Below, piece by piece: positions 3,027-35,118 of a stretch of 64,000 bases of DNA. The notes under the pieces were generated by a model that did not search any database, was not told the DNA's origin, and saw only the letters and a list, made by a program, of their open reading frames with translations. The stretch comes from Nanobdellota archaeon. GTDB taxonomy: Archaea; Nanobdellota; Nanobdellia; SCGC-AAA011-G17; JAFCDX01. Position 1 is the first letter of the stretch. Every line of letters starts with the position of its first letter. The stretch lies in NCBI GenBank assembly GCA_040753775.1, contig JBFMDT010000001.1, positions 58,584 through 122,583 of the forward strand. Direction: 5' to 3'. Position numbers and translations under genes: made by a program.

Positions 3027-5476
3027 CAAAAAAAATAATAGCAATAAGCGGAATGCATTGTGCTAGCTGTGCAAACACAATAGAAAAGGCTTTAAAAAAA
3101 CTTAAGGGAATAAAAGATGCTTCTGTCAATTATGCAACAGAAAAGGCAACAATAGAGCATGATGAAAAGTTTGAGATGTCTGAAGCTGCTAAGGCAATAA
3201 AAAGTCTTGGATATACACCATTGGAAGCAGAGGCTGTTGCTAAGGGAGAAATAAGGCTTAAAGTTATAGGAATGTCAAGCCCGCACTGCTCAAACATAGT
3301 CCAAAATGCATTGAACAAGCTTAAGGGAATAACAAATGCAGAGCTTAATTTTGCAAACGAGCTGGCAGTAATAAAATACAACCCAAATATTATAAATGTC
3401 AAAGGGATAAAGAATGAGCTCAAAAAGGCTGGCTACGAGGCTATTGAAGAAAGTTTTGTTGACAGGGAAAAAGAGGCAAGACAGAGGGACATCAGAACAT
3501 TAAGATTAGAATTCATAGTCAGTTTAATTCTTAGTATTCCTATAGTTCTCATAAGTATTCCTGATTGGTTTGGTATAGAAGTCCCATTTGTAAGTGTTCC
3601 ACATGCTTATATGAATTATGTACTTTTCATATTAACAACACCAATTCAATTGATAATAGCAAAAAGATTTTACAAGGGAATGTATTTTGCACTGAAAAAT
3701 AAATCAGCGAACATGGATACTTTAATAGCAGTGGGAACATCAGCTGCTTACTTATACAGTGTTGTTGTAACATTTTTTCCAAATATATTTCAGGACAATG
3801 TTTATTACGATGTTTCTGCCATTATCATTACATTCATAATCCTTGGAAAATATTTAGAGGCTGTCATGAAGGGAAAGACTTCAGAGGCTATTAAAAAATT
3901 GCTTGGATTAAGGCCAAAAACAGCAAGAGTTGTAAGAAATGGCAAGGAGATTGAAATAAGCATAGATGATGTAAGGGTGAATGACATTGTTGTTATAAAA
4001 CCAGGAGAAAAGATCCCTGTTGATGGAATTGTAATTGAGGGAAGCACTTCTGTTGATGAAAGCATGATTACTGGGGAGAGCATTCCTGTTGAGAAAAATA
4101 AGGGAGATGAGGTAATAGGAGCTACAATAAATAAAAATGGATTAATCAAATTTAAAGCAACTAAGGTTGGAAAGGACACTGTATTAGCACAGATTATTAA
4201 GCTTGTTGAGGAAGCACAGGGAAGCAAAGCACCAATACAAAGGCTGGCTGACAAGGTAAGCAGTTATTTTGTTCCTGTTGTCATAGTAATTGCTGTTTTA
4301 TCAGCTTTATTCTGGTATTTTATTGGAGCAAGCTTAACTACACTCAGCATGGCACCATTTGTATTTTCTTTAAGCATTTTTGTAGCTGTATTGATAATTG
4401 CATGCCCTTGCGCTCTTGGCTTAGCAACACCAACAGCTATAATGGTTGGAACAGGAAAGGGAGCTGAAAATGGAATCTTGATTAAGGGGGGTGAAGCATT
4501 AGAAACAGCGCATAAGTTAACAACAGTTATATTCGATAAAACAGGAACATTGACAAAAGGAAAGCCAGAGGTGACGGATATTGTTGCAGCAGAAAAATTT
4601 AATGAAAATGATGTTTTGAAATATGCTGCAATTGCTGAAAAGGGAAGCGAGCATCCATTAGCAGATGCCATTTTGAATAAGGTAAAGAAGATTGCAGGAT
4701 TTAAGATACCAGAAGCAAGTTCATTTAAGGCCCTGCCAGGATTGGGAGTTGAGGTAAAATACAAAGGAACAGAAATTTTATTGGGGAACAGAAAATTAAT
4801 GATTGATAAAAAAGTTGATATAAAAGATTTGGAAGACAATATTAGGAAATTAGAAGAGCAAGGAAAGACTGTAATTGTAGTTTCTTTTAGAAGAAAGGCT
4901 ATAGGAATAATTGCTGTTGCGGATACTTTAAAGGAGAATAGCAAAGAGGCTGTTGAAATTCTGCATAAAATGAAGAAAGAAGTAGTGATGATAACCGGTG
5001 ATAATGAAAGAACAGCAAGGGCTATTGCAAGCAAAATTGGAATTGATAGGGTGTTAGCTGATGTTTTGCCTGGAGAGAAAGCCCATGCTGTTAAGAAGCT
5101 GCAGGAAGAGGGAAAGATTGTTGCTTTTACAGGAGATGGGATCAATGATGCCCCGGCAATGGCACAGGCAGATGTAGGGATTGCTGTTGGCTCTGGAACT
5201 GATGTTGCTATTGAGACTGGCGATATTATATTAATTAAGGATGACTTGAGGGATGTTGTAAGGGCAATCAACCTGAGCAAATACACATTGAAAAAGATTA
5301 AACAAAATTTATTCTGGGCATTTTTTTACAATAGTGTTGGAATCCCTGTTGCAGCTGGTATATTGTACCCTCTTGGATTTTTGCTTAACCCAATAATAGC
5401 AGGCGCTGCAATGGCTTTTAGCTCTGTAAGCGTTGTAGGAAATTCCTTGCTGATGAGAAGGTATAAGGTAAAATGA
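3023..5476 (+). CDS. copA: Cu+-exporting P1B-type ATPase with two N-terminal HMA domains
   Basis: Two GMxCxxC metal-binding motifs, CPC transmembrane motif ([10 protein letters not shown]), DKTGTLT phosphorylation site, GDGINDAP hinge. Confidence 0.95.
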
Positions 5477-7799: not shown

Positions 7800-7838
7800 G
7801 AGCAAAAGATTTAAAAAATGACATAATGATCATTCTAT

Positions 7839-8624
7839 ATGAAGCACAGCATAAAAATAACAGTAATACTCCTTTCTTTGTTTATTTTAGCACAAATTAT
7901 TGGTCTTGTTATAGTAAAAAACTATATTTCAGAGCCTCTGCCGTATAAAATTGAAAAGCCGGAGATTAGAGAGACAACATCTTTTATACCCCTGACTTTT
8001 GCTATATTAATTGCAACTGCCTTAGCCCTGTTTTTATTGTATTTCAGGGCAAGGAGAATATGGAAATTTTGGTTTTTTATAAGCGTGTTATTCTGCCTGC
8101 TTATAGCATTTGGGGTATTTGTAAATGAAAAAATCGCTTTAATACTTGCGTTTGTTTTTTCTTTGCTGAAGGTATACAAGCCAAATGTAATACTTCATAA
8201 TTTGACTGAGTTATTTATCTATGGGGGCTTAGCTGCCTTATTTGTCCCTATACTTAATATTTTTTCTATTTCAGTTCTTCTTGTTATAATTTCTCTGTAT
8301 GATATGATTGCTGTATGGAAGACAAAGTATATGGTAAAAATGGTGAAGTTTCAGAGCAAGCTAAAGGTGTTTGCAGGATTGCTTATACCTTATGGAAAGG
8401 ACAAGACAGCAATTCTTGGTGGGGGTGATATTGGATTTCCGCTGCTGTTTTCAGGGACAGTACTTAAGACTTATGGCTTGCAGCCAGCTTTATTTTCCAT
8501 AATTTTTACAAGCCTTGCTTTATTGTTTTTATTGCTGATAGCTGAGAAGAAAAAGTATTATCCTGCAATGCCTTTCTTGGCTGCTGGGTGCTTTATTAGT
8601 TTATTAATTATAAATTTAATTTGA
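7839..8624 (+). CDS. presenilin/signal-peptide-peptidase family intramembrane aspartyl protease homolog
   Basis: Polytopic protein with YD (SLYDMIAV), GxGD (LGGGDIGFP) and PAL-like (YPAMPFLA) motifs in the canonical order. Confidence 0.55.
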   Translation: MKHSIKITVILLSLFILAQIIGLVIVKNYISEPLPYKIEKPEIRETTSFIPLTFAILIATALALFLLYFRARRIWKFWFFISVLFCLLIAFGVFVNEKIALILAFVFSLLKVYKPNVILHNLTELFIYGGLAALFVPILNIFSISVLLVIISLYDMIAVWKTKYMVKMVKFQSKLKVFAGLLIPYGKDKTAILGGGDIGFPLLFSGTVLKTYGLQPALFSIIFTSLALLFLLLIAEKKKYYPAMPFLAAGCFISLLIINLI

Positions 8625-8680
8625 ATAAAGAAAAAGGGCCGAAGGAAAAACCTCGATGATGGGAAAGGGAAAAGCCTCGG

Positions 8681-8796
8681 AAATGGGAAGGTTTTGAATG
8701 AGGCTGGAGCTTGCTAAAGTGTTGAATTTTGGCAGTGTAGGGCTTATGCTTGGGGTTCCACAGGAAATGAGGTCTCGATTGTGGGAAAGGGTGTAG
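8681..8796. repeat. upstream copy of ~110-bp imperfect direct repeat flanking the HEPN/MNT cassette (core 56 bp, 8741-8796, near-identical to 9675-9730)
   Basis: Direct comparison: tggggttccacaggaaatgaggtctcgattgtgggaaagggtgtag is present at both sites, with extended similarity upstream (aggttttgaat...). Confidence 0.8.
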
Positions 8797-8896
8797 TAGA
8801 GGGTGGAAATGAATGGTAGATAAAGAGGATGAAATTAAGGGAAGAAATATTTAAATAGTTGGAAAAAGAAAAATAGTATGGAAAAAGAGGGAAGGT

Positions 8897-9277
8897 ATGA
8901 GAAAAGAAATTGAGGATTGGGTAAAGCAAGCACTTGCAGATTTAAGAAAAGCCGAAGTTCTAATCAATAGCAAAAATTTTGATGGGGCTGTATTTTTCTG
9001 TCAACAGGCAGTAGAAAAATCTCTGAAAGCTTTATACATGCTTAAATTAAAAGAAATTCCAAAAGGACACTCTATAATTTATTTTGCACAAAAGGTTAAT
9101 GTTCCAAAAGAAATGCTGTCAGGCATAAGGGACTTGAATCCAGAGTATTTGATTACAAGATATCCTGATATGGCTGCAGGCATTCCTGCAGAACTTTATG
9201 ATGCAGAGATTGCTAATAGACATAAAAAAACTGCAGAACAGGTGCTAAAATGGGTAGAACAAAAGATAAAAAAATAA
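8897..9277 (+). CDS. HEPN-domain protein (toxin component of a HEPN/MNT pair)
   Basis: HEPN-like helical protein (AVFFCQQAVEKSLKALY...RYPD); overlaps the downstream MNT gene by 28 nt. Confidence 0.8.
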   Translation: MRKEIEDWVKQALADLRKAEVLINSKNFDGAVFFCQQAVEKSLKALYMLKLKEIPKGHSIIYFAQKVNVPKEMLSGIRDLNPEYLITRYPDMAAGIPAELYDAEIANRHKKTAEQVLKWVEQKIKK

Positions 9278-9564
9278 AAGATTTTATCAATAAAATTAAA
9301 AAAAAATATAATGTACAAAATGCAATATTATTTGGAAGCAGGGCAAGAGGCGATTACTTAAAAAACAGCGATTACGACATTATTATTGTCTCTAAAGATT
9401 TTAAAGGCATTTTTTTTACACAGAGGATTGCTAAAATGTATGCCTTTTGGAAATATTACCCGCTTGAAATAGAGCCTTTGTGCTATACCCCAGAAGAGTT
9501 TAAGAAAAAAGCAAAAGAGCATGGGACTGTTAGAACTGCGATTAAAGAAGGGATTAAGTTATAA
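9250..9564 (+). CDS. minimal nucleotidyltransferase (MNT, antitoxin component)
   Basis: GS-x9-DxD nucleotidyltransferase motif (GSRARGDYLKNSDYDIIIV). Confidence 0.8.
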   Translation: MGRTKDKKIKDFINKIKKKYNVQNAILFGSRARGDYLKNSDYDIIIVSKDFKGIFFTQRIAKMYAFWKYYPLEIEPLCYTPEEFKKKAKEHGTVRTAIKEGIKL

Positions 9565-9629
9565 AAAGCAATAAGAAGAATCTATAGAAAATGAGGTCTC
9601 GAAATAGGCCTCGATTCTGAGAAGGTTTT

Positions 9630-9730
9630 GAATAAGGTAGGATTTTTCGGAAATGCAGAATTTTACTGGTATAAGGCTTGCTGTTGGGGTTCCACAGGAA
9701 ATGAGGTCTCGATTGTGGGAAAGGGTGTAG
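9630..9730. repeat. downstream copy of the direct repeat flanking the HEPN/MNT cassette
   Basis: See 8681-8796; also contains the aggtctcga/gggaaagg submotifs. Confidence 0.8.
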
Positions 9731-9983
9731 GTGGGGGAAGACAGGACTGAGTGGAAAGGTACAGTAAAGAAGGGTTCTATACAAAGGGCAATGAAGATGA
9801 TATTGGATTTGGAAAGGGGGACAGCTAACCATGCTTTCCGCTGTAATGCAGTACAACATGGAACGGAGGCTTGCTTAACTTCCAGGTTCGAAATGTTTCT
9901 GGGTGGTTCCAAGCCCCTCTGGCCGTCCTGACGTCCATACGCACTTCAGGGTTAATAAGCTTTATGGTTGTGTCAGTACTCCT

Positions 9984-10914
9984 GTGATGTCCTGTAATTA
10001 GTTCACACTTATATACTATTCTATATAGTCTTCTTGAGGTGATGTTTTATGTTAAACTTTAAGAAGAAGGTATGGATAGTAAAGCAGAAAGATAAAGGAA
10101 TATTAACAGATTCTGAGATTGCTTCTGCTCAGGATGTTACAAGAAGAGCTGTACAGAAGATATATTCTATTTATAGATTAAATGGATTACAATCCCTAAA
10201 TGATAAGCCTAAAGGAAGAAGGATAGATGATATACTTTATAATCTACAACAAGAGATACTTAAGCTAAGGAAAGAGCAATACGGAGTGCATAAGATAGAA
10301 GGGTTATTAAAAAATAAGGAATTAATTATTTCCCATAACAAGATACATAGATTCCTTAAGTCTAAAGGATTAGTTAAGTTAGAGCCTAAGAAAGGAAGAA
10401 GATACAAGTATATAGATTGGGAAAGAAAACACTCTAATAGCCTCTGGCAGACTGATTATTGCTGGATTCCAAGGTATCATAAATGGATGATAGCATACGT
10501 AGATGATCATTCAAGATTATGCACTGGAGCTAGTTATACTAACGAAGCTACTACAGAAACAGCTATTAACTTGTTAGATAAAGCAATAAACAAATGGAAT
10601 AAGCCAAGAGAAGTGTTAAGTGATAGAGGATCTCAATTCTATGCTGCAAAAGGAGAGAGTTCTTATTATAAGGAGTATCTAAATAGCTTAGGGATTAAGC
10701 TAATCTATTCTTCTATTAAGAAGCCTACTACTACAGGAAAGATAGAGAGATTCTGGCTAACCCATAATACAGAGAGGTGGAGATTTAGTTCTCTAGAGAA
10801 GTTCATTAATTATTACAACTATAAGAGACTCCATATGAGCTTGGATTATCTAACACCTTATGAGGTTTACATAAGAGATTTACCTAATGTGAGAACCTAT
10901 TAGGAGACATCACA
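9984..10914 (+). mobile_element. IS element with imperfect terminal inverted repeats (TGTGATGTCcTgTAAT / rc TGTGATGTCTCCTAAT)
   Basis: Inverted repeats found by eye at 9984-10000 and 10901-10914, bracketing a DDE transposase gene. Confidence 0.6.
10049..10903 (+). CDS. DDE transposase (N-terminal HTH plus rve/integrase-core domain)
   Basis: WQTDYCWIP...DDHSRL...E catalytic-core pattern; N-terminal helix-turn-helix. Confidence 0.8.
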   Translation: MLNFKKKVWIVKQKDKGILTDSEIASAQDVTRRAVQKIYSIYRLNGLQSLNDKPKGRRIDDILYNLQQEILKLRKEQYGVHKIEGLLKNKELIISHNKIHRFLKSKGLVKLEPKKGRRYKYIDWERKHSNSLWQTDYCWIPRYHKWMIAYVDDHSRLCTGASYTNEATTETAINLLDKAINKWNKPREVLSDRGSQFYAAKGESSYYKEYLNSLGIKLIYSSIKKPTTTGKIERFWLTHNTERWRFSSLEKFINYYNYKRLHMSLDYLTPYEVYIRDLPNVRTY

Positions 10915-10974
10915 CTACAAAAAATAAACCGAAACCTTTATATATAAGTTACTACCTATTAATGACTAACAAAA

Positions 10975-12159
10975 ATGAAAAAAATAGCACTATTAATACT
11001 AGCACTTTCCTTAGTTATTGGAATAGCTAACGCTGCTCCTCCGCAAATAGACTCATTCAACCCAACAAGCCCAATAATTGTTGATGAAGGAACAATCACA
11101 CCAGTTTCTATTTATTTTTCAGACCCCGATGGAGACCCATTAACTGTCTCTATCTACTATGATGGGGAGCTGGTAGATCCAACTGCAAGTAATATTACTA
11201 TAACTCCAAACTATGCTAAAGGAGACTTTTATCCTGACTCTTCTGCAATAGGAAATCATAATATAAAAGTAACCGTATCAGATGGGACTTCAGAAGTTTT
11301 TCAAGAATGGGATGTAACTGTCAATGATGTAAATATTGCCCCAAAAATAACTTTTCCTAGCCAAGATAGTAAAATGAAGTTTTTTGAGGATTTTAACAGT
11401 GGATTATTTGCTATTTCGGCAGTTGATGCTGATGGAGACCCTATAACCTATTCAGCAAGCAATTTACCATCAGGAGCCACTTTTGATCCTTTAACACACA
11501 TGTTGTTATGGACTCCAACAGCTGGCCAAAGGGGAGAATATCAAATAACCTTAACTGCATCTGATGGAGCACTAAGCTCGTCTATAGACTTAATTTTAGT
11601 AGTCAATAGGCCGCCAGTAATAGAAAATTTCGACCCTTCTAGCGAATTAACAATAAGTGAGGGAGATTCTCTTACATTATCGCAAGATGTCACTGATGCT
11701 GATGGAGACCAAATAATGTACAGCTGGATACTAGATGGCACTCCTGTATCAGATAGAAATTATTATACATATTCTCCTGATTACAACAGCCAGGGAAATC
11801 ATGTTCTTGAATTTATAGCAACAGATGGAAAGTTAAGTACAAATAAAATATGGACAGTTATTGTTAATGATGTTAATCCGCCATCAGGAGGTGGGGGAGG
11901 CGGAAGCAGCAATGTTGAATCAAGCGCAGGAATGATTGTTATTGCACCAGAAACACCATCATCAATGCCTTTATCAGAACAACCAGTAGAAGAAACAAAG
12001 AATAAAGCAAGCGCTCCTCAAACTGTACAAGAACAATCCCCTATTACAGGCTTTGCTATATTAACAAATGCCATTTCAAATAATCCAATAATATCTGTAT
12101 TGGTCTTGATATTGATAATTGCATTAATAACAGGTATCTATTGGTACAAGAAGCATTAG
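10975..12159 (+). CDS. cell-surface protein with cadherin/PKD-like repeats, poly-Gly linker and C-terminal TM anchor
   Basis: Signal peptide; repeated D-x-DGD motifs and W-x-VTVNDVN modules; GGGGGGS linker; C-terminal hydrophobic helix plus KKH tail. Confidence 0.6.
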   Translation: MKKIALLILALSLVIGIANAAPPQIDSFNPTSPIIVDEGTITPVSIYFSDPDGDPLTVSIYYDGELVDPTASNITITPNYAKGDFYPDSSAIGNHNIKVTVSDGTSEVFQEWDVTVNDVNIAPKITFPSQDSKMKFFEDFNSGLFAISAVDADGDPITYSASNLPSGATFDPLTHMLLWTPTAGQRGEYQITLTASDGALSSSIDLILVVNRPPVIENFDPSSELTISEGDSLTLSQDVTDADGDQIMYSWILDGTPVSDRNYYTYSPDYNSQGNHVLEFIATDGKLSTNKIWTVIVNDVNPPSGGGGGGSSNVESSAGMIVIAPETPSSMPLSEQPVEETKNKASAPQTVQEQSPITGFAILTNAISNNPIISVLVLILIIALITGIYWYKKH

Positions 12160-12572: not shown

Positions 12573-13268
12573 ATGAAATATCCAAAATTATTGATTATAT
12601 TGCTTCTTATTCCTTTAGTCTTATTTATAGCAGCATGTGAACAAGCACAGCAAAAACAGCAGGAAGAAAAAGTAGTTAATACATGCGATGATAATAACCC
12701 ATGCACAGATGACGTATTTAATGAAAAGACCATGCAGTGCGAGCACAACAAGCTTTCAAAATGCTGCGGCAACAGGATATGCGAAGAGGGTGAGCGCTGC
12801 AATCCAGAAGTAGGTTATACAATATGTTCATCTGACTGTCCTTTAGAATGCCCTGCAAAAGCTACCGTATCAAAATTCAGCTGTGCAACGTCAAAATGCC
12901 AGCAAACATCTGAAAATACCTTTACTATAACTGACTCAAGCGTGATTGAAGCTGACTTGGAAAACATAGGCGAGCGCGGGACTGACTTAATAACATCAAG
13001 GTTCAAGTGCGGCAAAGGTGAAACAGATTTGGTTAGCCATGACAAGGATAATTTGTTTGGAATAAGCTTCAGGGACTACTTCAATAATAACGAAGATACT
13101 ATTTATTTAAGCGGCCGTCAATCAGAAACAGGCGGAAACAAAGCTAAGTACAAGTTTGCATTTGACATAACAAAATTGGAAAAAGCAACAGACCTTGATT
13201 GTGAAATAAGCCTGCAGGCAATACCAGCATTAAACAATATACAAACAGTACACTTGTCCTTTAAATAA
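12573..13268 (+). CDS. Cys-rich lipoprotein, hypothetical
   Basis: Lipobox (FIAAC); about 20 Cys residues in an EGF/disulfide-rich-like pattern. Confidence 0.4.
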   Translation: MKYPKLLIILLLIPLVLFIAACEQAQQKQQEEKVVNTCDDNNPCTDDVFNEKTMQCEHNKLSKCCGNRICEEGERCNPEVGYTICSSDCPLECPAKATVSKFSCATSKCQQTSENTFTITDSSVIEADLENIGERGTDLITSRFKCGKGETDLVSHDKDNLFGISFRDYFNNNEDTIYLSGRQSETGGNKAKYKFAFDITKLEKATDLDCEISLQAIPALNNIQTVHLSFK

Positions 13269-27536: not shown

Positions 27537-29336
27537 ATGTCAAAAGAGGAAACCTATGTTGTTGATACTTCAGTTGTAATAGAACGTATTGTTTCTAAAC
27601 TGATTAAAAACAAGGAAATAAAAGGTACTATTCTTGTTCCGCATGCAGTTCTTGCAGAGCTGGAGCACCAGGCAAATGAAAGAAAGGAAATAGGCTTTCT
27701 TGGCTTGGAAGAGCTGCAAAACCTGCAAAAGTTGGCAAAGGATGGAAAAATAGAGCTTAAGTTTATTGGGACAAGACCAAACTTATATCAAAGGATTTAT
27801 GCAAAAAGCGGCGGTGAAATAGACGCCTTGATAAGGGACCTAGCTTATGCAGAAGATGCAACCTTGATTACAGCAGACACAATACAAGCAGAATCAGCCA
27901 AAGCCCTCAATGTAAAAGTTCTATATTTTGAATTAAAAAAGTCAATAGGCAAATTAGAGATAGAAAAGTTTTTTGACAATACAACAATGTCTGTTCACCT
28001 AAAAGAAGATTGTTTTGTTAGGGGCAAGAAGGGTGGACCTGGAAACTGGCAGTTAGTTGATGTAAGCGATAAAAAATTGACATCTGAGGAAATTGAAGCA
28101 ATGGCAAAGGACATAGTTGAAAAAACAAGATTAGATCCACATTCTTTTATAGAAATCTCAAGAAAAGGCTCAACAATAGTCCAATATAAAAATTACAGGA
28201 TCGTTATTGTCCACCCTCCAGTGTCAGATGGAATTGAAATAACAGCTGTCAGGCCATTAAAAGTCTTAAACTTGGACGATTACAATTTAAAAGAAGAATT
28301 ATTTACAAGGTTAAGAGATAAAGCAAGGGGTGTTGTAATTGCTGGAGAAACTGGAAGTGGTAAAAGTACGTTTGCCCAAGCCCTTGCCGAATTTTATTCA
28401 AAGCTTAAAAAAGTTACAAAAACAATAGAAAGCCCGAGGGACTTAGTTTTGTCAGATGAAATTACGCAATATTCTAAAAATCTTGCATCCTCAACAGAAA
28501 TCCATGACATCCTGTTCTTGTCAAGGCCTGATTATACAATATTTGATGAGATGAGGGACACCCCTGACTTTGAGCTTTATACAGATCTGCGTTTGGGTGG
28601 GGGGAATGTCGTTGGTGTATTGCATGCAGCTGCTCCAATAGATGCTGTGCAAAGGTTCATAGGAAGAATAGAAACAGGAATGATACCATCTGTGCTTGAT
28701 ACCTTATTATTTATCGAAAAAGGTTACATAAACAAAGTTTTAACTCTAAAGATGGTTGTAAAAGTTCCATCAGGCATGACAGAAGCTGATTTGGCAAGAC
28801 CTGTAGTTGAAGTTCGTGATTTTAATACAAATAACTTGGAATTTGAAATATACAGTTATGGTGAAGAAACAGTTGTAGTTCCAGTAACCCGAGAATTAAC
28901 ACCAACATCCCAATTAGCCTCAAAAGCAATAGAAAAAGAATTCCTTAACTACTCAAACAATGTTAAAATAGACCTCTTGTCAGGCAATAAGGCAGTAGTT
29001 TATGTCCCTGAAAAAGATATAGCAACTATTATAGGCAAGAAAGGCAAGAACATAGAAAAGATAGAAAAAAGGTTGGGATTGCATTTAGAAATAAGGGAGC
29101 TAAAAGAAGAAAAGAATGAGATAAAATTTGAAGCAGAAGAAATAAAAAAGCATATTATCCTAAAGGTTCAGCCGTATTTGGCAAGGAGATTAGCGGATAT
29201 TTACGTTGATGATGAGTTTTGGCTCTCAGCAACAGTAAGCGACAAGGGCGAGATAAAAATAAATAAAAAAAGCAAGATGGGAAAAGACATATCAAAGGCA
29301 ATAAACTCAAATAAAAGCATTAGTATTAAAGCATAA
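27537..29336 (+). CDS. PIN-domain/PilT-like ATPase/KH-domain protein (conserved archaeal COG1855-type)
   Basis: N-terminal PIN acidic residues, central Walker A (GETGSGKST), C-terminal KH-like region (IIGKKGKNIEKIEKRLG). Confidence 0.8.
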   Translation: MSKEETYVVDTSVVIERIVSKLIKNKEIKGTILVPHAVLAELEHQANERKEIGFLGLEELQNLQKLAKDGKIELKFIGTRPNLYQRIYAKSGGEIDALIRDLAYAEDATLITADTIQAESAKALNVKVLYFELKKSIGKLEIEKFFDNTTMSVHLKEDCFVRGKKGGPGNWQLVDVSDKKLTSEEIEAMAKDIVEKTRLDPHSFIEISRKGSTIVQYKNYRIVIVHPPVSDGIEITAVRPLKVLNLDDYNLKEELFTRLRDKARGVVIAGETGSGKSTFAQALAEFYSKLKKVTKTIESPRDLVLSDEITQYSKNLASSTEIHDILFLSRPDYTIFDEMRDTPDFELYTDLRLGGGNVVGVLHAAAPIDAVQRFIGRIETGMIPSVLDTLLFIEKGYINKVLTLKMVVKVPSGMTEADLARPVVEVRDFNTNNLEFEIYSYGEETVVVPVTRELTPTSQLASKAIEKEFLNYSNNVKIDLLSGNKAVVYVPEKDIATIIGKKGKNIEKIEKRLGLHLEIRELKEEKNEIKFEAEEIKKHIILKVQPYLARRLADIYVDDEFWLSATVSDKGEIKINKKSKMGKDISKAINSNKSISIKA

Positions 29337-35019: not shown

Positions 35020-35031
35020 AGTGCGTCAGCT

Positions 35032-35118
35032 GGGATTTGAACCCAGATCCTCGCCTTGGAAGGGCGAGATATTGGCCCATTTCTGACTAGCCATTATACT
35101 ACTGACGCATAATCAAGA
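35032..35118 (-). tRNA. tRNA-Gly(TCC) with a ~14-nt insertion (probable intron) in the D-loop
   Basis: On the minus strand: acceptor GCGTCAG/CTGACGC, anticodon arm TCGCC-CTTCCAA-GGCGA, T-arm CTGGG-TTCAAAT-CCCAG all contiguous; the D-region (GTAT...23 nt...ATAT) is about 14 nt too long. Confidence 0.7.

Follow-up and report, generated by a model that had tools for sequence, protein, structure and literature searches.

A direct repeat around a HEPN-MNT gene pair probably reflects a duplicated 5S rRNA gene flank in an archaeal variable island

Introduction

Beside a 5S rRNA gene in a member of the Nanoarchaeota, a putative toxin-antitoxin gene pair is enclosed by two copies of a direct repeat. 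An earlier note on this DNA had taken the arrangement for a discrete, repeat-delimited cassette formed by duplicative insertion, at a recombination site or at an integron-like attachment site. This raises the question of whether the repeat is a dedicated site for gene capture or ordinary flanking DNA that has been duplicated. The genomes of DPANN archaea are tiny, and few mechanisms of gene acquisition are recognised in these organisms; a landing pad specific to one recombinase would matter more for that reason. If the core of the repeat were a real recombination site, it would represent a new gene-capture route beside a 5S gene. If the ordinary reading is true, the locus is one more accessory island anchored on a stable-RNA gene, and the use of the result lies mainly in annotation: the 5S gene is placed, and the repeat should not be labelled attC or att.

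Here, we analysed a 64-kb stretch of DNA containing the locus (the window, to which all coordinates refer). With a probability of about 0.55, we favour the reading that the bracket arose by local duplication or recombination of 5S-flanking DNA within a variable island and is not a new cassette-capture system.

Genes at the locus

The bracketed DNA comprises 887 nt and holds only HEPN and MNT, with no integrase gene or integrase remnant. The first gene (8897-9277, + strand) encodes a 126-aa HEPN-domain protein, the putative toxin (Pfam PF05168, 90.7 bits, E = 1e-25). The second (9250-9564, + strand) encodes a 104-aa minimal nucleotidyltransferase (MNT), the putative antitoxin (PF01909, 49.7 bits, E = 5e-13; PF18765), whose sequence includes GSRARGDYLKNSDYD, in line with the GS...DxD motif. 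The genes overlap by 28 nt, as they do in homologous loci. Judged by domains and architecture, they form a typical HEPN-MNT (type VII) toxin-antitoxin pair, sharing with known modules the combination of PF05168 and PF01909. The proteins themselves are ordinary, whereas the flanking repeat is peculiar to the present locus. A homology search with the HEPN protein returned 173 sequences at E ≤ 1e-10, mostly from uncharacterised metagenomic sources and some from named Nanoarchaeota or Woesearchaeota; the best 120 of the 173 were 57-100% identical.

A presenilin-like gene (7839-8624) ends just before the left repeat copy. On the other side, the right copy adjoins the 3' side of the 5S rRNA gene (9816-9930, - strand, 55.7 bits), the only family matched in the Rfam scan, with a TATA-like TTATTAA upstream of it at ~9960. 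The promoter side of the 5S gene is occupied by an IS element (9983-10914, + strand) with an rve-family transposase (10049-10903) and 26-nt imperfect terminal inverted repeats (9983-10008 and 10889-10914). This transposase is the sole DNA-mobilising enzyme among the window's 57 open reading frames (ORFs) with a length of 150 aa or more; a Pfam search of all 57 detected no Phage_integrase, no other tyrosine or serine recombinase and no Orc1/Cdc6. The 5S-flanking island measures ~4 kb here and comprises toxin-antitoxin pairs, the IS and a helicase.

Structure of the repeat

A repeat search aligned 8674-8815 with 9608-9749, i.e., 142 nt at 76% identity and a spacing of 934. The longest exact run is 47 nt (8750-8796 = 9684-9730). 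A 45-nt core pattern matched twice within the window and not at all in 100 shuffles. The direct repeat is genuine and far above chance expectation. When indels are allowed, the homology reaches leftward to the stop codons of the upstream genes (~8626 and ~9565); it ends directly after the core, and the sequences to the right of the core have no significant similarity between the copies.

The left copy (8626-8796, no strand assigned) starts directly 3' of the presenilin-like stop codon and is the extra, more diverged one. It consists of a partial unit CCTCGATGATGGGAAAGGGAAAA (8651-8673), an arm (8674-8749) and the 47-nt core TTGGGGTTCCACAGGAAATGAGGTCTCGATTGTGGGAAAGGGTGTAG (8750-8796, no strand assigned). 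The core contains the small dyads TTCC-ACA-GGAA and GAG-GT-CTC plus one short unit (CTCGATTGTGGGAAAGG). The right copy (9565-9730, likewise unstranded) starts directly 3' of the MNT stop codon, and has its own partial unit TCTATAGAAAATGAGGTCTCGAAATAG (9581-9607), arm (9608-9683) and identical core (9684-9730, unstranded). An unstranded spacer (9731-9815) leads from this core to the 3' end of the 5S gene. The short unit CTCGRWWNTGRGAARGG, allowing at most one mismatch, had five matches (8652, 8676, 8774, 9610 and 9708), compared to 0.01 expected, and all five fall within the two copies; a 24-nt period was also found at 8644-8689 (TRF).

Most of what the earlier note had described from the letters was therefore real: the flanking direct repeat, the recurring short unit and the two overlapping genes were all recovered. 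Three points needed correction. The block given as a near-perfect 56-bp repeat (8741-8796 and 9675-9730) exists but matches at 52 of 56 positions (93%), being perfect over 47 nt only. The short repeats, read as a family, are restricted to a single locus. The IS placed immediately downstream is real, but the 5S gene lies between it and the right repeat.

The element is strongly asymmetric between strands, which counts against the favoured reading in that neutral intergenic DNA does not account for it. Its GC skew is the most extreme within the window, and a 150-nt C-free run (8777-8926) adjoins the left core. The region upstream of HEPN (8797-8896, + strand) falls inside this run and outside the repeat, with 27% identity to the equivalent right-hand stretch. 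It contains a 19-nt tandem repeat (8853-8888) and a TATA-like TTTAAATA (8848-8855) that may be part of a promoter.

Several other identities were rejected. A small ORF in the core (MRSRLWERV) is shortened to 4 codons in the relative L001 (see below), and long minus-strand ORFs are unconserved and arise as artefacts from the purine richness of the + strand. When the element was aligned locally with either 5S gene, z was ≤ 2, which speaks against a degenerate 5S pseudogene. Resemblance to a C/D-box sRNA was limited to ATGATGG/CTGA in the wrong order and a noise-level match to sR58. A template/variable repeat pair of a diversity-generating retroelement was dismissed on inspection of the alignment, where mismatches are not adenine-specific; window ORFs of at least 150 aa include no reverse transcriptase. 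An assembly artefact was also set aside: at the usual k-mer sizes of metagenome assembly, 47 identical nt between diverged flanks would probably not suffice for contigs to be collapsed or duplicated.

Distribution and orthology of the element

An nhmmer search with a profile of the three known copies, covering the window plus 21 loci, found only those three: two in the window and one in L001, a related metagenomic genome. The element occurs nowhere else in the 64 kb. Pattern scans gave no matches in GTDB representative genomes, IMG/VR, or plasmids and phages, and one match only in JGI metagenomes. The short repeats are thus limited to one locus within the window and the collections searched, and we discarded a dispersed (MITE- or REP-like) repeat family on the same grounds.

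In L001, for which two compared proteins are 83% and 85% identical, one orthologous copy lies beside the 5S gene in the same position and orientation. Element and 5S gene together are 72.6% identical to those of the window over 340 nt. The neighbours differ: the L001 island has a CBS-domain protein, a weakly ParE-like pair, a helicase and a second ParE-like toxin, and its element abuts the weakly ParE-like putative toxin-antitoxin gene pair, not HEPN-MNT. Four independent contigs of the relative start at the island edge and the L001 contig ends there, which fits strain variability. No empty site was found by way of presenilin orthologs, as the neighbourhood of this gene differs in relatives. 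The spacer between core and 5S is conserved neither in L001 nor in the left copy, and measures ~85 nt in the window versus ~65 nt in L001.

We initially considered conservation of the element as a sign of function. Its identity between window and L001 is 77%, while within the syntenic block ordinary intergenic DNA is 73-95% and coding sequence 75-81% identical. Since ordinary intergenic DNA reaches these values, the 77% indicates no special constraint, and the argument was dropped. A second, degenerate copy beyond the L001 toxin-antitoxin pair was rejected as well: a MAFFT alignment was suggestive only, local alignment gave z = 2.7, 1.9 and -0.3, and nhmmer found no match.

A duplicated 5S flank as the best explanation

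The three copies revealed a mosaic identity. Their left arms are 66% identical between the two window copies, 68% between the right copy and L001, and 59% between the left copy and L001. In contrast, the core is 100% identical between the window copies and 86% identical to L001. By our own arithmetic, 47 identical positions have p ~3e-9 at 66% per-site identity and ~8e-4 at 86%. GGTCTCGAAATAGGYYTCGATTCTGAGAAG is common only to the right copy and L001 (z 18 versus z 11 and z 8). The combination of 66% arms with an identical core suggests an old duplication followed by gene conversion or crossover at the core, and we read the perfect block as the footprint of such an event. With two genomes carrying the element, the recombination mechanism and the order of events are what we infer from this pattern.

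Under the favoured explanation, the element would be ordinary, lineage-specific intergenic DNA (purine-rich, C-poor, ~170 nt). In this Nanoarchaeota lineage, its native place would be on the 3' side of 5S, which is here an unlinked rRNA gene. The resident would be the right copy, which shares its collinearity with 5S with the L001 copy, and the left copy would be an older or imported paralog. HEPN-MNT, a minimal two-gene mobile module, would have been caught between these paralogous copies. For the 47-nt block, a tract of gene conversion or crossover between the two copies is the best reading, and as direct repeats the copies could also allow deletion or excision of the gene pair by recombination. 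The 5S flank appears to be a strain-variable accessory island of toxin-antitoxin pairs, IS and helicase. Its content would turn over through recombination, either homologous or illegitimate, with the conserved 5S gene and the adjoining flank as anchor, and not through a dedicated cassette recombinase. A Campbell-type single crossover in the core was rejected in a test with few informative sites: it predicts the resident arm in the left copy, and it is the right copy that is collinear with L001.

A comparable situation is known from SAR11, where 23S and 5S rRNA genes border the hypervariable region HVR2 and are thought to serve as sites of homologous recombination (PMC2217521). As in such rRNA-anchored islands, strain-variable accessory genes lie here directly beside an unlinked 5S gene, nothing but the RNA gene with its flank is constant, making these a plausible anchor for homologous recombination, and attC sites are absent. 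The present island differs in being small (~4 kb), in a cargo of toxin-antitoxin pairs plus an IS instead of genes for surface polysaccharides, and in having a duplicated flank that brackets one module; homologous exchange is what we propose here.

Could the core be a site-specific recombination site?

Integrons, including ones with toxin-antitoxin cassettes, have been reported in Nanoarchaeota (PMC9668308). One conceivable reading makes the core an att- or integron-like site. A recombinase whose gene lies elsewhere would insert toxin-antitoxin cassettes there, beside the 5S gene, and each insertion would leave a copy of the site on both sides. We regard this as quite unlikely. The locus shares with integron cassettes a short toxin-antitoxin cargo bounded by repeated non-coding sites, and toxin-antitoxin cassettes are common in integrons. 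The core dyads, the short direct-repeat units occurring two to three times per copy like arm-type sites, and the different putative cargo beside the element in L001 are all in keeping with such a site. However, the locus has no IntI, attC secondary structure, R''/R' boxes or array, and what is conserved in its repeat, which occurs at one locus only, is the sequence and not the structure. When we searched for R'' (RYYYAAC) and R' (GTTRRRY), no copy had both on one strand and the right copy had neither; the boxes are unpaired within the copies and form no hairpin, with ssDNA and RNA folds no more stable than shuffles (z -1.2 to +0.6). Instead of a cassette array, the profile search found three copies in all, a pair in the window and a single one in L001, where the apparent second copy is non-significant. 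Integrase-less attC clusters (CALINs) exist, and the missing integrase among window ORFs of at least 150 aa is therefore not decisive by itself.

The perfect block within diverged arms also resembles attL/attR, which as direct repeats with an identical core can adjoin a stable-RNA gene. Compared to elements of this type, the present cargo is below 0.9 kb and lacks an integrase, the repeat lies outside the RNA gene (85 nt separate the core from the 3' end of 5S), and the similarity does not end with the core but runs ~100 nt to one side at 66%. Moreover, the copy on the 5S side is not chimeric and corresponds without a break to its ortholog, the one copy of L001. This intact, 5S-collinear right copy counts against integration because a crossover in the core would part the resident arm from the 5S gene. 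A more specific variant supposes a lineage-specific landing pad, the core being the crossover site of a recombinase encoded elsewhere in the genome or by a mobile partner that swaps small toxin-antitoxin modules beside the 5S gene and needs neither attC structure nor an adjacent integrase; we consider it very unlikely.

These results bear on the wider proposals of the earlier note. An integron-like or attachment site found no counterpart in attC boxes, hairpin or a recombinase among the window ORFs of at least 150 aa, and no other cargo bracketed by the element turned up in the window or in any collection searched. Of the proposed discrete cassette, what survives is a footprint of recombination or gene conversion and the presence of another putative pair beside the element in a relative; a dedicated site is not supported. 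The note itself had held that a repeat occurring only here, with homologous genomes carrying HEPN/MNT at the same locus without flanking repeats, would indicate a simple local duplication. This is largely the situation found, in that the repeat is confined to this locus in all that was searched and HEPN/MNT elsewhere lacks it.

Possible RNA or replication signals

In view of the strand asymmetry, the element might also work together with the 5S gene, as a functional non-coding RNA or as a signal at the transcript level. It could be a purine-rich + strand RNA antisense into 5S, or the 5S transcript could carry it as an unstructured 3' trailer rich in C and poor in G; the left copy would then be a still-working duplicate, for instance as leader of HEPN-MNT. 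Consistent with this, the C content of the + strand has stayed at 7-10% in all three copies despite their sequence divergence, and two CC-to-TT changes in L001 lie opposite GG in candidate + strand helices, where they would be compatible with G-U pairing. TATA-like boxes before each copy (+ strand) and T5 tracts at the ends of both window copies (- strand) might act as signals. On the other hand, Rfam matches within the repeat were at noise (best sR58, 14.9 bits versus a gathering threshold of 55, E = 4.3), folding energies were no better than those of shuffles, and the alifold covariation term for the three sequences was positive, i.e., a penalty. The shifting distance from 5S to core across an unconserved spacer, the 77% identity within the intergenic range and the absence of the element next to 5S in three relatives that are more distant also argue against an RNA, and we judge this explanation unlikely.

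Finally, the cores could be ORB-like sites bound by Orc1/Cdc6; the locus would then be a replication origin or be left over from an integrated replicon. Over the first 16 positions, GTTCCACAGGAAATGA agrees at 14 with published ORBs, e.g., GTTCCAGTGGAAATGA-AGGGGT (PMC4153887), and the P. furiosus ORB1 oligonucleotide reads GGTTCCAGTGGAAATGAAACTCTGGGGGG when reverse-complemented (PMC1904270). The core shares with archaeal ORB and mini-ORB sequences the TTCC-N-GGAAAT dyad followed by GA, and a degenerate third dyad TCTATAGA retains the symmetry. Over the full 22 nt, however, the match falls to 15/22 and is at chance, as 14 window positions reach a score of 15 or more and three unrelated positions reach 16; TTCC-N(2-4)-GGAAA occurs twice more elsewhere in the window. 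The G-string is missing, the copies are direct rather than inverted around an AT-rich unwinding element, and no orc1/cdc6 was found next to them or among the window ORFs of at least 150 aa. An origin is hence very improbable. ORB-like motifs near the 5S gene of another locus (L010) were discounted, lying inside a coding region.

Other HEPN-MNT loci

To place the gene pair itself, we compared it with six other loci of the same HEPN-MNT architecture, which encode 67-78% identical HEPN proteins; the element is absent from all six. Nucleotide homology among the loci extends from the start codon (ATG) of HEPN to the MNT stop or to a point no more than ~55 nt away from it. This limitation to the gene pair suggests that it moves as a bare two-gene module.

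Given that the repeat flanks exactly these two genes, insertion of HEPN-MNT might itself have generated a long target-site duplication in the recent past, a version of the duplicative insertion considered in the earlier note. A direct repeat of ~45-90 nt also encloses the gene pair at one other locus (L011). Nevertheless, five of the seven HEPN-MNT loci have no flanking repeat, and to our knowledge none of the known transposition mechanisms yields duplications of ~170 nt. With 66% identity, the arms are as far apart from each other as each is from the ortholog in the other genome, suggesting that the duplication dates from roughly the time at which the two lineages separated. A recent target-site duplication therefore has very little to recommend it, and the older duplication of the 5S flank remains our preferred explanation.

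Against this explanation, toxin-antitoxin pairs abut the element in both genomes that carry it, which hints at something more systematic. The flanking repeat of L011, which differs from the present one and consists of local sequence (z = 6.4), likewise gives such a hint.

Anatomy of the repeat and the bracketed gene pair

A repeat search of the window confirmed the direct repeat that the earlier note had placed around the HEPN and minimal nucleotidyltransferase (MNT) genes: positions 8674-8815 and 9608-9749 align over 142 nt with 76% identity at a spacing of 934. The 56-bp block reported there is present, but identical at only 52 of 56 positions. The longest exact run between the copies is a 47-nt core (8750-8796 and 9684-9730), which occurs twice in the window and in none of 100 shuffles. 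When indels are allowed, homology reaches leftward as far as the stop codon of the gene preceding each copy (~8626 and ~9565), and it ends directly after the core, with no significant similarity between the flanks to the right. Each copy consists of a partial unit end followed by a full unit of ~110-122 nt that terminates in the core on its 3' side; the same ~18-nt motif opens and closes the unit. The short unit CTCGRWWNTGRGAARGG (at most one mismatch) was found five times against 0.01 expected, always within the two copies, and a pattern scan detected neither GGTCTCGA nor TGGGAARGG elsewhere in the 64 kb.

The bracketed genes encode a HEPN protein (8897-9277; PF05168, 90.7 bits) and an MNT (9250-9564; PF01909, 49.7 bits), and overlap by 28 nt. 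We compared them with six other HEPN-MNT loci whose HEPN proteins are 67-78% identical. Nucleotide homology begins at the HEPN ATG and extends only to the MNT stop codon or to within ~55 nt of it, and none of the six loci carries the element. This speaks against the pair being a cassette with its own site. At one of these loci (L011, GCA_974442395.1; HEPN 75% identical), a direct repeat flanks the pair at ~3906-3950 and ~4722-4810 (local-alignment z = 6.4); this repeat, ACTATTTAAAGCTTTC...AAGTAGTATT, includes a TATA-like box and is unrelated to the window element. No flanking repeat was found at the other five loci. In the window, a TATA-like TTTAAATA and, after it, a tandem repeat of 19 nt (AAATAGTATGGAAAAAGAA x1.9) closely precede the HEPN start codon (8848-8888) and may represent the promoter and operator of the operon.

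The right copy adjoins a 5S rRNA gene

A 5S rRNA gene missed in the earlier note was found on the minus strand at 9816-9930 (Rfam, 55.7 bits), and the right copy (9565-9730) thus sits just 3' of it. The IS that had been placed directly downstream of the cassette does exist (9983-10914, with an rve transposase at 10049-10903), but the 5S gene intervenes between it and the right repeat.

A metagenome contig of a related genome (L001), two of whose proteins are 83% and 85% identical to those of the window, carries one element copy directly on the 3' side of its 5S gene in the same orientation, and the element and 5S block is 72.6% identical over 340 nt. The other L001 neighbours of this block all differ from those of the window: a CBS-domain protein, two small paired genes that match ParE and DUF2683 weakly and whose transcription runs away from the element, a Rad3/XPD-like helicase and a second ParE-like toxin. 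Synteny returns only at ORF 12573-13268. The L001 contig ends there, and in four independent assemblies of the relative (L002-L005) the contig starts 76 nt before the ortholog of this ORF. That assemblies repeatedly break at the edge of the island (~12500) fits, and suggests, strain-level heterogeneity of the island.

Mosaic history of the two copies

The left (8626-8796) and right copies are 66% identical over the 76-nt left arm and fully identical in the core (43/43 aligned columns, 47/47 ungapped). The right copy and the L001 copy share 68% of the arm and 86% of the core, and the left copy and the L001 copy 59% and 86%. Only the right and L001 copies have GGTCTCGAAATAGGYYTCGATTCTGAGAAG in common, and their local-alignment z is 18, while the remaining pairs score 11 and 8. 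These comparisons identify the right copy as the resident ortholog of the L001 copy; the left copy would be a paralog dating from about the time when the two lineages separated, or an import from a more distant lineage. By our own arithmetic, 47 consecutive identities have a probability of ~3e-9 at 66% per-site identity and ~8e-4 at 86%. An identical core within diverged arms is, as a sequence pattern, the signature of a gene conversion or crossover tract, and we infer that the core was homogenised after the duplication. The mosaic supports recombination at the repeat, as previously suggested, and argues against a fresh duplicative insertion with target-site duplication. Integration through one crossover within the core is unlikely, as it predicts that the left copy would now hold the resident arm, and this is not the case.

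The presenilin-like gene preceding the left repeat (7836-8624) adjoins an aCPSF1-like beta-CASP/KH gene, not a 5S island, in the relatives L017 and L020; in L017 a proteasome-subunit gene then follows the aCPSF1-like gene. Homology of the presenilin gene with both loci ends at its stop codon or close to it, where the left repeat starts, and this junction is a rearrangement breakpoint. Since relatives have the presenilin gene in other neighbourhoods, its orthologs revealed no empty site.

Distribution of the element

A 22-nt degenerate core pattern had no match in 185,579 GTDB representative genomes and exactly one, L001, in JGI metagenome contigs. In IMG/VR, two additional patterns from the core and one from the left arm matched nothing, and BLAST with the right copy found no match in plasmids or phages. 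Three more distant relatives (L008-L010), retrieved with a 5S-specific 24-mer, all lack the element beside their 5S genes. A profile built from all three copies and searched with nhmmer detected no further copies in the window or 21 fetched loci, and an apparent degenerate second copy in L001 was not significant by local alignment or this profile. Across the window and the collections searched, only two genomes were thus found to carry the element, at this single locus; the core does recur in a relative, but as one copy. The 5S genes of L009 (3262-3405) and L010 (2848-2989), two related DPANN genomes, measure 142-144 nt and have an insertion in the helix III region relative to the 115-nt gene of the window.

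Alternative identities of the element

Archaeal integrons with toxin-antitoxin cassettes exist (PMC9668308). Their defining features are absent from the HEPN-MNT locus, and the integron-like reading is not supported: the element has no paired R''/R' boxes and no hairpin (folding z -1.2 to +0.6), the locus has no cassette array, and a check for a site-specific recombinase, covering the 57 window ORFs that encode 150 aa or more, found no integrase. That the element is a landing pad for a dedicated recombinase next to the 5S gene seems to us very improbable.

As a replication origin, the core would contribute GTTCCACAGGAAATGA, which resembles published ORBs (PMC4153887; PMC1904270). However, the match over 22 nt is 15/22, no better than at 14 positions in the window, the core has no G-string, the copies are in direct orientation and the 57 ORFs include no orc1/cdc6. 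For an ncRNA, there was no Rfam match and no folding signal, and the covariation analysis comprised three sequences, too few for power; given the strand asymmetry and two changes compatible with G-U pairing, a transcript-level role is still conceivable. A 5S pseudogene, a DGR, a C/D-box sRNA and a small ORF were each rejected.

Calibration on a syntenic block (window 12.5-24 kb versus L002) gave 73-95% identity for intergenic segments and 75-81% for coding regions. The 77% identity of the right and L001 copies is therefore ordinary, with no evidence of special constraint on the element. All three copies contain 7-10% C on the plus strand, and the element region has the most extreme GC skew in the window. 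Adjoining the left core, a 150-nt plus-strand run without C (8777-8926) extends from the core end across the putative HEPN promoter and 5' UTR into the first 30 nt of the HEPN reading frame; no other stretch of 80 nt or more in the 64 kb is free of C or of G.

A proposed 5S-anchored island

The layout of the locus, the orthology of the right copy, the confinement to one locus and the mismatch with the known classes tested are shown by the data. We infer the following order of events and recombination mechanism. The bracket would be a duplicated piece of a lineage-specific 5S flank, within a small strain-variable island anchored on an unlinked 5S gene. HEPN-MNT, probably a bare two-gene mobile module, sits between the resident copy and what would be the older paralog, and recombination or gene conversion would have kept the 47-nt core identical. 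The closest known analogue is the rRNA-gene-anchored hypervariable region HVR2 of SAR11, whose flanking 23S and 5S genes have been proposed as homologous-recombination sites (PMC2217521).

Other features of the window and relatives

In the more distant relative L006, an RVT_1 reverse transcriptase (10772-11647) adjoins a 49%-identical homolog of ORF 12573-13268 and may belong to a diversity-generating retroelement; the window's ORFs of at least 150 aa include no reverse transcriptase. An 87-nt tRNA at 35022-35108 on the minus strand, detected by Rfam (57 bits) and not called by ARAGORN, is probably an intron-containing archaeal tRNA. In a 599-aa protein (27537-29336), a PIN domain at the N-terminus is joined to a type II/IV secretion ATPase domain (T2SSE). 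Finally, a large cluster at 41.9-63.6 kb, comprising glycosyltransferases, B12-binding radical SAM enzymes, methyltransferases, a GDP-mannose dehydratase and a flippase, resembles a gene island for the synthesis of surface glycans.
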